Positions 9 through 63,433 of a DNA stretch of 64,000 nt are shown here, piece after piece. The translations under genes and the position numbers were made by a program. Position 1 is the first letter of the stretch. Each line of letters starts with the position of its first letter. The notes beneath the pieces are model-generated. The model was given only the letters and a program-made list of their open reading frames with translations. It did no database searches and was not told the origin of the DNA. The DNA comes from an uncultured Candidatus Saccharibacteria bacterium (GTDB lineage: Bacteria > Patescibacteriota > Minisyncoccia > Phycocordibacterales > UBA2100): contig CAYGKV010000001.1 of assembly GCA_964350885.1 (NCBI GenBank), forward strand, positions 4,073 to 68,072. The letters run 5' to 3'.

Positions 9-242
9 ATGATCGCGATGTGTCTCGTCTCTCCGATTGTACTCGGAAGTGTTGCGCATCGGTGGATGTTTAAGACGGCGCACTACGAAGTATCGTGGAA
101 GACGATCCTTCTTGGAGTTGCGCTGTACTTTGCGCTCGGCATGATCCCTTTCGCCGGAGATATCGCACAGTTCTTACTCATGCTTCTCGTACTAGGAGCC
201 GCACTGAAAATCAAAAAAGATGCAATCAAGGAGTGGCGGTAG
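9..242 (+). CDS. small hydrophobic membrane protein (possibly N-terminally truncated by window edge)
   Basis: ORF in frame with window start; two predicted TM helices (ILLGVALYFALGMIPFAG, FLLMLLVLGAAL); no recognisable family. Confidence 0.3.
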   Translation: MIAMCLVSPIVLGSVAHRWMFKTAHYEVSWKTILLGVALYFALGMIPFAGDIAQFLLMLLVLGAALKIKKDAIKEWR

Positions 243-259
243 GATGCTACAATTCGCAG

Positions 260-625
260 ATGCGGTCTATCGTTGTCGCGGTGTCGTTTTTTCTCCTCTT
301 AGGTCTCACCAATCTAGCGAGCGCCTACTACTATGACGACTCCGTCATCATCGAAATAGGAGATGGTACGCCGCCTGAACCAAGTACGCCGCCGGGAGGA
401 GATTCTCCACCGGAGAGTGGGGGATCAGGGTCGGGGGAATCTGGAGTCGATGGCACGAGCACGCAAGGCGGAAACGGCACAGGCGGACAAGGAAGCAGTG
501 GAAATCCAGATGGCAGCTCGGGCATCTCTGTGGGAGCGGGTAACAACTCTTCGGGTGAGGGGGGGGTACCACGTCGAATAATTCTGGAAGTGCAACTACC
601 GACCCGCTGTTTGATCTACTGGTAA
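260..625 (+). CDS. secreted Gly/Ser/Thr/Pro-rich protein, N-terminal part (signal peptide MRSIVVAVSFFLLLGLTNLASA); interrupted by frameshift at G8 tract 559-566
   Basis: ATG at 260 with hydrophobic signal peptide, long low-complexity GS/PT linker; reading frame terminates 60 nt after homopolymeric G run. Confidence 0.5.
   Translation: MRSIVVAVSFFLLLGLTNLASAYYYDDSVIIEIGDGTPPEPSTPPGGDSPPESGGSGSGESGVDGTSTQGGNGTGGQGSSGNPDGSSGISVGAGNNSSGEGGVPRRIILEVQLPTRCLIYW
559..566. repeat. homopolymeric G8 tract at frameshift point between the two secreted-protein ORF halves
   Basis: ggtgaGGGGGGGGtacc; a 9-G version would fuse frame +2 (…SSGEGG) to frame +1 (TTSNNSGSATTDPLF…) with no stop. Confidence 0.6.
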
Positions 626-642
626 CTCAAGGGGCGATTACG

Positions 643-1218
643 TTGCAAAATCAAAATGGGAATTCTCTCTCCGTCGGCACAGGCGGGGTGACAAGTGATG
701 CTGTCGGTAGTGGGGTAACAACGATCGGCGCGGCGAAGTTGCGCGCAACGCTTCGAGGCAAAGATAATTTCAGAAACATTCTCGATGATTACAGTAGCGG
801 ATATCGCGCGGGAAAATATCGGATGCTCTCAGCTCGCGATGTGGGACTCGTCGGTGCCTCAGCGATACTCGAAGATATCAATATAGACGCAATCACTTTC
901 GGCGCTACAAAATTCGAAATGGTATACCGGGCGCGAGGGTACCTCATCGGTTTTATTCCAAAGACGTTTCCCGTCCGAATTGCGGTCGATCCTCAGACGA
1001 CTGTTGCGACTGATCGGGTAGTACTCACCTTGCCGTGGTATCGGTTCTTACTGCGTAAACTCTTTACCTCTTCCGTGCTCGCTCGGGAGATCGATGCGGT
1101 CGTCGTGGCAGACGAGCGTTTGCCTGGCGACACATTGGCCGATGTGCAAGCACGTCTCTTCGAAGAGATATCCTCTACACTGAAGAAAAAAGTGGGAACG
1201 ATCGGGGTCAATCAATAA
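643..1218 (+). CDS. C-terminal part of the frameshifted secreted protein (frame +1 open from 559)
   Basis: ORF continues the G/S/T-rich character (NGNSLSVGTGGVTSDAVGSGVTTIG) then a globular C-terminal domain; TTG at 643 is probably not a real start. Confidence 0.45.
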   Translation: MQNQNGNSLSVGTGGVTSDAVGSGVTTIGAAKLRATLRGKDNFRNILDDYSSGYRAGKYRMLSARDVGLVGASAILEDINIDAITFGATKFEMVYRARGYLIGFIPKTFPVRIAVDPQTTVATDRVVLTLPWYRFLLRKLFTSSVLAREIDAVVVADERLPGDTLADVQARLFEEISSTLKKKVGTIGVNQ

Positions 1219-1413: not shown

Positions 1414-2388
1414 ATGCTAGTAGATGAAATAACAATTGAGCTCCACGCAGGAGATGGTGGCAAGGGTGCCGTCGCTTTCCAGAAGGTCCGGCTTGCCCGC
1501 GGTCCTACGGGGGGAGATGGGGGCAATGGTGGCAGCATCTATTTTGAAGGCGTCTCCAATCCGAGCGCACTCTCGGTGTTTGCTCATAAAAAGATAATTC
1601 AGGCGGAAAATGGCAGAGACGGTCGCGGGCAGTTTCTCGACGGCAGAGGAGGCGCCGATCTTATACTGAAGATTCCTATTGGCACGCGCATACACAATGT
1701 CAGTACTGGATATGTGCAAGAGATGGACGAGGTGGGACAGCGCATCTTGGCGGCAGGAGCGGGGATCGGAGGACGGGGGAATTTCAAATTCCGTTCATCA
1801 ACCAACACGAGCCCGATGGAGGCTGAGCCCGGATTAAAGGGCGATACATGCGCCTATAGACTTGAGCTCCGCTTGATTGCTGATGTCGGATTTGTCGGTT
1901 TGCCAAATGCGGGGAAGTCGAGTCTTTTGAATGAATTGACTGCAGCAAAGAGTCGCGTCGCGGGATACGCATTCACGACACTCGAACCTCACCTCGGCGC
2001 GTACTACGAGATCATTCTTGCCGATATCCCAGGACTTATCGAAGGGGCTTCGGAAGGTAAAGGGCTCGGTGTCAAATTTCTCAAGCATATCGAGCGCACG
2101 AAAGTTCTATTTCATCTCATTTCCGCAGAATCCGACGATGTGGCGAAAGATTATGAAGTTATTCGAAACGAGCTGGAGAGCTACAATCCGATGCTTACCA
2201 AGAAAATTGAATATGTGTTTCTCACAAAAACCGACGCTGTCACACCGGAGGAAATAAAGAAGAAGTTACAAGCACTCAAGAAAAAGAAATTAAAACCAAT
2301 CCCCATCTCAATTCTCGATGAAAAGAGCCTCATGGAAGTAAAAAAGATACTCAATAAGATAAAATCCGCGAAACTGGGAAAAGCATAA
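1414..2388 (+). CDS. obg: GTPase Obg/CgtA
   Basis: Obg-fold glycine-rich N-terminus (GDGGKGAVAF, GGDGGNGGSIYF, GRDGRGQF); G domain motifs GLPNAGKSSL, DIPGLIEGA, TKTD. Confidence 0.92.
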   Translation: MLVDEITIELHAGDGGKGAVAFQKVRLARGPTGGDGGNGGSIYFEGVSNPSALSVFAHKKIIQAENGRDGRGQFLDGRGGADLILKIPIGTRIHNVSTGYVQEMDEVGQRILAAGAGIGGRGNFKFRSSTNTSPMEAEPGLKGDTCAYRLELRLIADVGFVGLPNAGKSSLLNELTAAKSRVAGYAFTTLEPHLGAYYEIILADIPGLIEGASEGKGLGVKFLKHIERTKVLFHLISAESDDVAKDYEVIRNELESYNPMLTKKIEYVFLTKTDAVTPEEIKKKLQALKKKKLKPIPISILDEKSLMEVKKILNKIKSAKLGKA

Positions 2389-3046: not shown

Positions 3047-3116
3047 GTTTTACACGCTGCTGCCGGCGACGAAGCCGCTGCTCCAGCAGAGCTGTAGCGA
3101 GTAGCCGCCGGAGGGG
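3047..3116. repeat. direct repeat copy 2 (covers last ~21 codons and stop of flavoprotein gene)
   Basis: gttttacacgctgctgccggcgacgaagccgctgctccagcagagctgtagcgagtagccgccggagggg. Confidence 0.65.
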
Positions 3117-4282
3117 CGGTTGATGTGTAGCACATCGCCGATGAGATAGAGGTTAGAGATTTTGAGACTACGCATAGTGCGCGTATCTACTTCCGTGAGC
3201 GGCACGCCGCCGTCGGAGACGATGGCGCGATCGAAGCCCATCAATCCTTCAATCGTCGCTGGAGCTGACTTAAGAAGGTGAACGAAGCGTTTGCGATCTT
3301 CTTTGGTGAGGCTATGGGCTTTGAGCGAAGGGTTTGGCAAGTTCAGTAGTGAGGTATACGCGCGACTCATGCCGGCCGGTACAATTTCGTCGACAACATT
3401 TTTGAAATCCTTATTCTTACTCGCTTCAATGGCGGCGAGGACGCGCTTTTCGAGCACAGCAAAATCGGTGTCGGGAAATGCGTCGATGGCGCAAGTGACG
3501 GTACCGCCCGATAGAAGATCGTGTACCTGATGAGCGCAGTTCAATATGAGAGGGCCGGAGAGCCCAAAGTGAGTAAAAAGGAGCCGCCCTTTTCTTGCAA
3601 ACGCTCGTTTGCCGTCGACGAAGAAAACAATCTTCATATCAGGCAACGTAATGCCAGCGAGTTTTTTTACCCATGCATCATCTACGCGAAGCGGGACAAG
3701 GGTCGGAGTCGATGGGATTACAGTGTGACCAAGGGCGGGGAGCCAATTGAATCCGTCGCCCGTCGAGCCCGTCTCGGGATGCGATGCGCCGCCTGTTGCG
3801 AGTACAAACGACTCAGCAGTAAACATCCCCTTAGTGCTCACGACATCAGTAATACGGCCGTCTGTAGCATTGAGTTTTTCCACAGTCACGCCCGTCAATA
3901 CCTCGACGCCATGCTCGGCAAGATAGGTCTTGAGCGTTTTGGTAACGTCGGTCGCTTTCTGTGTAACAGGGAATGCGCGGTTTCGTGCTTCGATGACGAG
4001 AGGCAATCCGCGTGAAGCGAAAAAATCAAAGGTGCTCTGCACGCCAAATTGGGAGAAAGGGGAGTAGAGAAATTGTTCTGCGGCGCCGTAATTTTTCAAG
4101 AGCGCACGCACATCTAATTCCGCGTTTGTGATATTGCACCTGCCTCCGCCGGTCGTATCGAGCTTTTTCCCAAGCTTTGCGTTTTTTTCGATAAGTAAGA
4201 CCGATTTACCGCGCTCGGCTGCTATACCCGCAGCAAACATGCCCGCGGCCCCGCCGCCGATCACAATGACATCGTACTTCAT
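3050..4282 (-). CDS. NAD(P)/FAD-dependent oxidoreductase, HI0933/BaiN-like flavoprotein
   Basis: MKYDVIVIGGGAAGMFAAGIAAERGKSVLLIEKNAKLGKKL…GGGRCN Rossmann dinucleotide fold; chosen start is the internal Met (ORF track extends to 4456). Confidence 0.8.
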   Translation of the reverse strand: MKYDVIVIGGGAAGMFAAGIAAERGKSVLLIEKNAKLGKKLDTTGGGRCNITNAELDVRALLKNYGAAEQFLYSPFSQFGVQSTFDFFASRGLPLVIEARNRAFPVTQKATDVTKTLKTYLAEHGVEVLTGVTVEKLNATDGRITDVVSTKGMFTAESFVLATGGASHPETGSTGDGFNWLPALGHTVIPSTPTLVPLRVDDAWVKKLAGITLPDMKIVFFVDGKRAFARKGRLLFTHFGLSGPLILNCAHQVHDLLSGGTVTCAIDAFPDTDFAVLEKRVLAAIEASKNKDFKNVVDEIVPAGMSRAYTSLLNLPNPSLKAHSLTKEDRKRFVHLLKSAPATIEGLMGFDRAIVSDGGVPLTEVDTRTMRSLKISNLYLIGDVLHINRPSGGYSLQLCWSSGFVAGSSV

Positions 4283-4325
4283 TATACCCGCTTGCATTAG
4301 GAATATATAGCACGTAATTTGATTT

Positions 4326-4514
4326 TTGTCCCAAGACGTGGTATTATCGCACCTCATGAATATCCCCACAAAAACCTTCCAAAGGAACGGCAAATGGGTG
4401 GAAAAGACCAGCACGGTGAAGGTAGCGGTCTGTGCGTGCAAAAACAAGTACATCAAGACCCGTGAGAATCAACGACAGTGCATCCGGTGCATTTATAAAT
4501 CCGCGCGGATCTAA
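4326..4514 (+). CDS. small Cys-containing hypothetical protein (possible zinc ribbon)
   Basis: 62 aa ORF in a 300 bp intergenic gap; VCACKN…CIRC motif; no family recognised. Confidence 0.2.
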   Translation: MSQDVVLSHLMNIPTKTFQRNGKWVEKTSTVKVAVCACKNKYIKTRENQRQCIRCIYKSARI

Positions 4515-4539: not shown

Positions 4540-5295
4540 ATGGGACATCGCGTTCTTTTTCATAAAACGCGCTCGTATATGGCCACGCTAAAACAGCTGA
4601 AAGAATATATTGAACCGGGGATTTTCTATTTTGCGCTTGCGATCATCGTCGTAGTTATGATTTTCGTGCGAGAGCCGCTCGGTCTTCCCGGGATTGATTT
4701 TTTTGCCGGAATCGCGAAAGATTTCTTTGAACGATACGGCCTCATCACGCTCTACGTCTCGGCGGTGATCGAGAGTCTTTTCATGATCAGTTTCTACTTT
4801 CCAGGATCGCTCATCGTCGCTCTCGCAATCCTCGTGTCCGATAGAAGCGTCGCAGCCTTGGCGGTTATTGTGCTAATCGGGTGGGCGAGCGTGCTCACCG
4901 CGACCGCGATCAATTATTGGCTCGGGAAAGAGGGTTTTTATCGGCTTCTTCTGAGGCTCGGTTCGGAGGACACGCTTCACTCTATGCAGGCGTACCTGGA
5001 GAAACGTGGACGATGGGCTGTCTTTTTCTCCGCGGTGCATCCCAACCTTCTCGCCATCGCAACTATTTGTATGGGTATCGCTCGGACGGGTTTTGTAAAG
5101 ACGATGGCATTCTCTTTCATTGCTATAGCGTTCTGGATACCAGTGCAAGTGTACATTCTTGGTTTTGTACTTCCGGATCCAAATGAGAGCATGGCGCTCT
5201 TGCAATGGCTCATCGCCGCTCTCTTCGTCTTCGGTGGAGTCCGGGCGGTGCGAAAAAAACAGGGTGATGTACACTCAAGCAGCATTGGCGTATGA
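4540..5295 (+). CDS. DedA/VTT-domain family membrane protein
   Basis: ERYGLITLYVSAVIESLFMISFYFPGSLIVALAIL typical DedA core; multiple TM helices; alternative start at 4579. Confidence 0.7.
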   Translation: MGHRVLFHKTRSYMATLKQLKEYIEPGIFYFALAIIVVVMIFVREPLGLPGIDFFAGIAKDFFERYGLITLYVSAVIESLFMISFYFPGSLIVALAILVSDRSVAALAVIVLIGWASVLTATAINYWLGKEGFYRLLLRLGSEDTLHSMQAYLEKRGRWAVFFSAVHPNLLAIATICMGIARTGFVKTMAFSFIAIAFWIPVQVYILGFVLPDPNESMALLQWLIAALFVFGGVRAVRKKQGDVHSSSIGV

Positions 5296-62398: not shown

Positions 62399-63433
62399 AT
62401 GGAACCTTTCTTTAGGCGTCTGCAAAAATTACTGGACACAGGACATTTCTTAATTCACAACCTCGAAGAGCGTTCTCAGGAAGGCGTAAATCGCCGCACC
62501 ATCATCATCATTTGTGTCGCAGGATTTTTGTCGGCAATTGCATATTTGTTTGTAATCCGACCCCCCCACAATTTTCCCATCGACACACTCGTCTCTGTGA
62601 AAGATGGATCATCACTCGAGAGTGTTGCGCGAGATATGCAAACAAGCGGTGTCGTTCGCTCCGGCGCGCTCTTGCGGGCACTCGTGTGGGCAATGGGAAA
62701 TTCGCGATCCGTGCGCGCCGGAGATTATCTTTTTAAAAAACCGGAGGACATTTTCTCGGTTGCGCGCACTCTCGCATTGGGTCGCTATGGGCTCGAACCC
62801 TTTAGAATTCGAATTCACGAAGGAGCGATGACGAAAGAAATGGTCGATTTATTTGATAAACGACTCGAACGGTTTGATGGGGATCGTTTTCTCCGCGAAG
62901 CGCAGTCGCATGAAGGGTACCTCTTTCCCGACACATACTTTTTCATGCCAAACGCGACAGATGAGACGGTAATTCAGACACTGCGGCAAAATTTTGACCA
63001 ACAGATTGCCACTATTTCTTCAGAACTCGCGAGTTCTACACGCACTCTTTCCGAAATCGTCACTATGGCTTCAATCGTCGAGCGCGAAGCGCGCGACCCA
63101 AAAGACAGGCGCATGATTGCGGGAGTCTTGTGGAACCGCCTTGCACGCGACATGCCGCTCCAGGTGGATGTCACGTTTCTCTACACCATCGGCAAAGGCA
63201 CGTTTGATCTCACTATGACGGATCTCGTCAGCGACTCTCCGTACAACACATACAAAAACAAAGGACTTCCGCCGACACCAATAGGGAGCCCATCTTTGGA
63301 CTCCATTCTCGCTGCGGCACAGCCGACAAAGAACAACTATCTGTACTACCTCGCGGACAATACGGGCGTGACGCACTTTAGCAAAACCTACGCAGAGCAT
63401 CTCCGCAAAAAACGCCTGTATTTGGGCACGTGA
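62399..63433 (+). CDS. mltG: endolytic murein transglycosylase MltG (YceG family)
   Basis: N-terminal TM helix, YceG core (VTIHEGAMTKE, GYLFPDTYFF, LPPTPIGSPS). Confidence 0.8.
   Translation: MEPFFRRLQKLLDTGHFLIHNLEERSQEGVNRRTIIIICVAGFLSAIAYLFVIRPPHNFPIDTLVSVKDGSSLESVARDMQTSGVVRSGALLRALVWAMGNSRSVRAGDYLFKKPEDIFSVARTLALGRYGLEPFRIRIHEGAMTKEMVDLFDKRLERFDGDRFLREAQSHEGYLFPDTYFFMPNATDETVIQTLRQNFDQQIATISSELASSTRTLSEIVTMASIVEREARDPKDRRMIAGVLWNRLARDMPLQVDVTFLYTIGKGTFDLTMTDLVSDSPYNTYKNKGLPPTPIGSPSLDSILAAAQPTKNNYLYYLADNTGVTHFSKTYAEHLRKKRLYLGT

Follow-up and report, generated by a model that had tools for sequence, protein, structure and literature searches.

How should a bacterial gene be read when its two halves lie in different frames and meet at a run of a single base? 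This question is raised by positions 260 to 1,218 of a 64,000-nucleotide (nt) stretch of contig CAYGKV010000001.1, hereafter the window, which is the whole stretch of DNA that we analyzed and which comes from an uncultured bacterium of the candidate phyla radiation (CPR, or Patescibacteria). CPR bacteria are uncultivated episymbionts, and their surface biology is almost unknown. A first-pass annotation had proposed that two open reading frames (ORFs) at this locus are the halves of one secreted-protein gene, that the frame changes at a tract of eight guanines (G8), and that one extra G would restore a protein of about 320 amino acids (aa); it took the tract to be either a phase-variable switch or an assembly error. 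That annotation does not mention the simplest possibility, namely that a loss-of-function mutation became fixed recently. This is the reading that we favor, at about an even chance: a recent slipped-strand frameshift would have produced a null allele, at the level of the population consensus, in a conserved envelope or secreted-protein gene of a CPR (Kaiserbacteria-like) bacterium.

A conserved gene split at a run of eight guanines

The tract GGGGGGGG at positions 559–566 is the sole G run of at least seven in the 64-kb window. The first reading frame (ORF1) runs from ATG 260 to a TAA at 623–625, a stop that lies 57 nt 3′ of the tract, and the downstream frame, closed on its upstream side by a TGA at 556–558, is open from 559 until its stop at 1216–1218. 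When the repaired protein was searched against the window with tblastn, two high-scoring segment pairs abutted at the tract, one covering residues 1–102 in frame 2 (260–565) and the other residues 88–319 in frame 1 (520–1215). Upon changing the length of the tract in silico, the addition of one G gave a protein of 319 aa and the removal of two gave one of 318 aa, homologous throughout, and the G8, G7, and G10 alleles all gave truncated products. The sequence and the abutting segment pairs thus bear out the frame change that the first-pass annotation had placed at 559–566, and the intact full-length homologues described below confirm both that a single secreted-protein gene comprises the two ORFs and that a single extra G yields a protein of the expected kind.

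In the repaired gene, the tract occupies codons 100–103 of 319, i.e., it lies in the 5′ third, and the frame is shifted within the first linker of the protein, 13 codons 5′ of the helix motif LFDLLVTQGAIT. Because homology to this motif starts at about position 606, the shift is confined to the interval from 559 to ~606, in which G8 is the sole homopolymer. By composition the occurrence of G8 is unremarkable (1 G/C run of at least 8 observed in 64 kb versus 0.73 expected under an order-1 Markov model), but its location, at the place where the two halves of a conserved gene switch frame, is not a matter of chance. The only other G/C run of at least seven in the window, a C7 at 62561–62567, lies inside an intact 344-aa ORF (62399–63433).

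Past the tract, ORF1 ends in a 19-aa out-of-frame tail, VPRRIILEVQLPTRCLIYW, followed by the stop. Gene callers render ORF1 as a 130-aa protein starting at GTG 233 (P0018), and they render the downstream half as positions 688–1218 only, i.e., as a 176-aa protein that has no signal peptide (P0002). The main practical value of the analysis lies in annotation, as these 130-aa and 176-aa hypothetical proteins of the databases are one disrupted gene.

The G8 tract was found in five assemblies (Logan ERR3094295 and ERR3094293; ENA ERZ27247817, ERZ27247837, and ERZ27247830), which stem from two assembly pipelines and draw on two or more read sets. The five contigs concerned (L001–L004 and L043) matched the window at 100% identity over 1.2–3.9 kb, with 0 mismatches, and all of them carried G8. 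The truncated products also derive from an NCBI metagenome-assembled genome, on a contig of 153,719 bp, and they occurred on 3–6 contigs (P0018) and 4–7 contigs (P0002). Three independent assemblies break within the split gene itself: L002 starts at 333 and L004 at 373, 40 nt apart in the first linker, and L043 ends at 1180. The window contains neither a paralogue nor a repeat that would account for these breaks; they may reflect strain heterogeneity at the locus or a drop in coverage.

To each of the 97 homopolymers of at least 6 nt in the window (including A8, T8, and 17 A7/T7 runs), we applied a simulated +1 and a simulated −1 indel. Gene halves became joined at G8 only, i.e., at 1 of the 97. 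Eight further candidate breaks were rejected as gene junctions or antisense noise; among them, the candidate at the A7 run at 5253 is a normal VTT-domain/DUF454 gene pair that is present likewise in a relative (L016). The ten largest genes of the window showed full-length Pfam coverage.

Intact relatives and the age of the frameshift

With the repaired protein as query, 5.8 billion protein clusters yielded 16 homologues, with lengths of 303–355 aa, or of 498–522 aa where they are fused to an N-terminal YdjM membrane domain. One match alone, to the C-terminal fragment P0002 (176 aa), was near-identical. Among 1.84 billion representatives, a profile then matched 149 clusters at E ≤ 1e-10, nearly all of them 290–360 aa long and covering the whole profile. 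The named sources of the homologues are Kaiserbacteria, Paceibacterota, and other Patescibacteria, all belonging to the CPR. Alignment of the repaired protein with 12 or more intact homologues of 303–355 aa spans both ends, and all 33 invariant columns of the family alignment (A1) are retained in it. At the DNA level, the gene lies in a single frame at 8 of 8 loci from GTDB genomes and at 22 of 23 metagenome loci, and no G/C run of at least seven is present at the homologous site in ~30 homologous loci. The window lineage is therefore the exception. Aligned by codon, the four closest relatives encode x-Gly-Gly-x at the site via mixed GGN codons, from which the ancestral state may have been either G6 (E-G-G-T) or G9 (E-G-G-G-T).

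Two apparent cases of a second split homologue were rejected: the break in L038, a scaffold artefact, falls at an N, and P0038 is only truncated at a contig edge, as were the short family members that we checked. A further short protein, P0031 (269 aa, at 335–1144 of the 1425-bp contig ENA ERZ27297570), starts inside the first linker and is preceded on the same strand, in another frame, by a 103-aa ORF (3–314). This locus may represent a second lineage split in the same linker, or just the end of a DUF8173 gene, the kind of gene that lies upstream of the family gene.

The first-pass annotation had also named an outcome that would speak for a genuine pair of short proteins rather than a switch, namely uniform support for G8 together with homologues ending at the same stop. 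What we found is divided between the two. No homologue ends at the stop of ORF1, and an export signal is absent from the downstream half, on which grounds a pair of short proteins was rejected; all assemblies carry G8 without variants, a result that counts against the switch.

Apart from the frame change, the gene appears undamaged. The downstream frame is open over 219 codons, and over 167 aligned columns of its C-terminal domain there are 4 lineage-unique substitutions, each of them conservative, versus 2–15 in intact relatives. The pairwise omega (ratio of nonsynonymous to synonymous divergence) of this domain against relatives is ~0.1, similar to that of the adjoining DUF8173 gene. Since synonymous divergence is saturated (dS of 0.8–3), this omega shows only long-term purifying selection and cannot date the frameshift. 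The locus hence displays the disruption relative to intact orthologues that is typical of a pseudogene, and none of the further degradation (stops, indels, or faster substitution). As both halves are otherwise undegraded, the frameshift is probably recent; as there are no secondary lesions, either the lesion is very young or the gene is not a permanent pseudogene.

Origin of the frame change

We suggest that a single-base slipped-strand event during replication, fixed in the sampled population, would account for the G8 allele, with G9 to G8 as the simplest path (a single step) and G6 to G8 as a possible one; it would be a null allele and not an evolved switch. The G8 product would consist of the signal peptide, the conserved N-terminal motif, the linker, and the 19-aa nonsense tail. 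The rest, a C-terminal module that comprises the LFDLL helix and the ~170-aa alpha/beta domain, would go untranslated, or would be made only from internal starts; the candidate starts TTG 643 and GTG 688 supply no export signal, so that such a product would be mislocalized. The lesion should be revertible because it sits in the G8 tract, and we found no evidence that reversion is used. A frameshifted gene is, as such, an ordinary kind of event. Several points weigh against a simple loss of function, however. A switching or a recoded gene would likewise show a conserved operon position and two perfectly preserved halves. Judging by their adjacent accession numbers, the samples seem to stem from one study, so the read sets are perhaps not biologically independent. 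Minority G9 reads, moreover, are invisible in consensus assemblies, with which a mixed ON/OFF population is compatible. A literature search on runs ERR3094293 and ERR3094295 found no paper.

All assemblies seem to stem from one study, and possibly from one sequencing chemistry, and a systematic homopolymer miscall could have dropped one G from a true G9, the actual gene being intact. Homopolymers are the classic sites of indel errors, and the repaired gene is perfect apart from the shift. Yet the five assemblies, made with two assemblers from no fewer than two read sets, do not differ, and the other 96 homopolymers of at least 6 nt break no gene, which argues against an error-prone platform because more homopolymer damage would then be expected in the window. 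We therefore consider an artefact, the assembly-error alternative of the first-pass annotation, quite improbable. A second way to keep the gene functional would be recoding: ribosomes could shift by −1 on G_GGG_GGG, or RNA polymerase could slip and insert an extra G into the mRNA, so that G8 DNA would still give the full-length protein and the gene would only appear to be split. Both halves are preserved, the tract in the phase of ORF1 forms an X_XXY_YYZ heptamer, and a −1 slip yields exactly the homologous sequence ...GEGGGTTSNN... (...SSGEGGGTTSNN... across the junction of the full-length product, with SSGEGGGTTSNNSGSATTDPLF as the expected junction peptide and VPRRIILEVQLPTR as the tail peptide diagnostic of the truncated ORF1 product). 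The heptamer is, however, a formal match only: no stimulatory stem-loop or pseudoknot was found downstream, as the RNA folds of 567–660 and 520–640 were not more stable than those of shuffled sequences (z = +0.34 and +0.68, respectively), and no homologue keeps the frameshift, unlike in the programmed cases of dnaX, prfB, and insertion sequence (IS) elements. All-G heptamers and G runs also slip poorly in comparison with A/U-rich sites. Recoding has, in our view, a slim chance at best.

The switch proposed by the first-pass annotation deserves more weight, although we hold it to be doubtful. Here, the gene would be a contingency locus for a surface or secreted protein, where the G tract acts as a reversible slipped-strand ON/OFF switch (G9 and G6 ON, G8 OFF) that varies an exposed envelope component, e.g., in response to phage or for host attachment, and the sampled populations would be mostly OFF. 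The annotation was correct in calling the tract a textbook substrate for slipped-strand mispairing: in Neisseria, Campylobacter, Bordetella, and M. tuberculosis, G/C tracts of at least 7–8 nt are hypermutable (PMC5084427, PMC8355987, PMC1891110, PMC10334774), and the present tract is of that length, lies within the 5′ third of an ORF with a signal peptide, and toggles in silico between full-length and truncated products, with +1 or −2 restoring the frame. The full preservation of both halves is what one expects of a gene that is periodically ON, and its protein evolves faster than those of its neighbors (see below), as exposed proteins often do. Other hallmarks of contingency loci are absent. 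The five assemblies show no length heterogeneity at the consensus level, all of the assembled alleles being G8, and the exact products of G6, G7, G9, and G10 alleles, from either start codon, were absent among ~15 billion proteins. A variable-gap DNA pattern for other tract lengths gave 0 matches in Joint Genome Institute (JGI) metagenomes, a scan that is uninformative given that the organism itself is not in the JGI collection. The ~30 homologous loci do not keep the tract, and it is not over-represented, as the G/C tract counts in the window, including the one tract of at least 8, equal the Markov expectation. A literature search turned up no CPR bacterium with homopolymer phase variation, the nearest case being an in-frame hypervariable 9-mer repeat gene of a Gracilibacterium (PMC6851277). 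Support for phase variation hence comes only from what kind of tract this is and what kind of protein the gene encodes: a suitable tract is present, but it is neither conserved in relatives nor enriched, and only its OFF allele is seen. The fuller proposal, a working contingency locus that toggles a fast-evolving, lineage-conserved envelope protein paired with the DUF8173 membrane protein, in populations caught OFF, strikes us as unlikely. If true, CPR/Patescibacteria would gain their first described case of homopolymer-driven ON/OFF phase variation, which would plausibly vary the surface that hosts or phages meet; such a stochastic switch, should reads show G8/G9 heterogeneity, would give a first handle on surface variation in the CPR.

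Protein family, gene neighborhood, and known counterparts

The repaired N-terminus reads as a signal-peptide layout followed by linkers rich in G, S, T, and P. In the family alignment, the order of modules is an export signal, an invariant Y-x-D-S-V-I-IEIGD motif, a G/S/T/P linker, the LFDLLVTQGAIT helix, a second linker, and the C-terminal domain. As the first-pass annotation had advised, the fused protein was compared with Pfam and with structure predictions: the AlphaFold2 model is confident (mean predicted local distance difference test score, pLDDT, 89.6; predicted template modeling score, pTM, 0.84), and it has no relative that we could find in the PDB, nor does the family have a Pfam match, which places it outside curated families and known folds. 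In four homologues (P0011, P0012, P0015, and P0017, at L006 and L010, from some Paceibacterota), the signal peptide is swapped for an N-terminal multi-pass YdjM domain (PF04307), which ends directly before the Y-N-D-S-x-I-IEIGD motif. Judged from domain architecture, this fusion implies a protein tethered to the membrane on its outer face, and the replacement of the signal peptide by YdjM fits an extracytoplasmic, membrane-proximal location.

The gene directly 5′ of the family gene is always the DUF8173 gene, whose protein is laid out as a signal peptide, beta-helix-like G-rich repeats, and a C-terminal membrane domain. In the window, the stop of this gene lies only 17 nt before ATG 260, so the two are probably operon partners. 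The family protein may well have an envelope or surface role in which it acts with the DUF8173 protein. The order DUF8173 gene, split gene, obg is kept in L005, L014, L015, and L016, which form a close Kaiserbacteria-like clade where obg always follows. In these same relatives, the protein of the split gene is 56–59% identical to that of the window, as compared to 85–94% for Obg and 71–76% for the DUF8173 protein; it thus evolves faster than its neighbors. With ~150 clusters, a restriction to the CPR, a confident model that has no PDB relative, synteny with DUF8173, and an occasional YdjM fusion, the family is, frameshift aside, a sensible subject for structural or functional work. The features of the locus are collected in Table 1.

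Table 1. Features of the split gene and its neighbors, in window coordinates.
Feature	Position	Strand	Remarks
Upstream gene, 3′ end (380-aa DUF8173/PF26514 protein)	9..242	+	Full gene read in L001
ORF1, N-terminal fragment with G8	260..625	+	103 native residues (signal peptide, YYYDDSVIIEIGDG motif, first G/S linker)
Predicted signal peptide MRSIVVAVSFFLLLGLTNLASA	260..325	+	A-x-A cleavage motif, then YYY; read from sequence without a predictor; layout kept in homologues
Family-defining N-terminal motif YYYDDSVIIEIGDG	326..367	+	I31, E32, I33, G34 invariant in alignment A1
G8 homopolymer, frame-change site	559..566	+	ORF1 phase GAG GGG GGG GTA; 559–565 formally G_GGG_GGG; identical in L001–L004, L043
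Downstream reading frame, rest of protein	559..1218	+	Upstream bound TGA 556–558
Conserved helix motif LFDLLVTQGAIT	607..642	+	First structured element of C-terminal module; L121, G125, A126 invariant; pLDDT >90
Alpha/beta C-terminal domain, ~170 aa	706..1215	+	Alignments A1–A3; YRSRGYL, IPKTFPVR, LPWYRF motifs
obg GTPase gene, downstream neighbor	1414..2388	+	Pfam GTP1_OBG 4.9e-40

Elsewhere in the window, a 68-nt direct repeat (2414–2481 and 3049–3116, 93% identical) brackets a toxin-antitoxin pair on the minus strand, with genes at 2498–2845 (115 aa) and 2742–2984 (80 aa, a PhdYeFM antitoxin). Because the copy at 3049–3116 is the 3′ end of an HI0933-like flavoprotein gene (3050–4456), the cassette looks as if it was inserted with duplication of the gene end. 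The first repeat copy is also where Logan contigs L001 and L004 stop (window position 2476). Between 5510 and 45455 lie large, apparently intact genes for an AcrB-type resistance-nodulation-division pump with its HlyD partner, a bifunctional aspartokinase-homoserine dehydrogenase, G6PD, the CarB large subunit, UvrA, UvrB, and a P-type ATPase. This is a rich set of functions for a genome affiliated with the CPR.

The locus can be set beside four kinds of known system. With genes that use programmed −1 frameshifting or transcriptional slippage (dnaX, IS3-family transposases, Shigella mxiE, and the poly(A) rescue of endosymbionts), it shares overlapping frames that are joined at a slippery homopolymer, where a −1 event gives the full-length product; it differs in having neither a stimulator nor conservation of the site in homologues, and in a tract that is G-rich instead of A/T-rich. 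It resembles the poly-G/C contingency loci of Neisseria, Campylobacter, Haemophilus, Bordetella, and M. tuberculosis in that an exported protein is encoded by a gene with an 8-nt G tract toward its 5′ end, and in a reading frame that is toggled by a +1 or −2 change in length. Unlike in those loci, no length heterogeneity, orthologue conservation, or enrichment of the tract is observed, and the host is an uncultivated CPR bacterium. The recent homopolymer frameshift pseudogenes that are common in reduced or host-associated genomes offer a likeness in that one indel splits a gene that is intact and in a single frame in relatives. The window gene departs from them in the lack of any secondary lesion and in its conserved operon position, from which the inactivation would be very recent or not permanent. 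Finally, the window copy differs from the unnamed CPR family next to DUF8173 (PF26514) in being frameshifted, and, once repaired, its protein has every module of that family, including the Y-[DN]-[DN]-S-x-[VI]-IEIGD motif, the LFDLL helix, and the YRSRGYL/FPVR/LPWYRF motifs.
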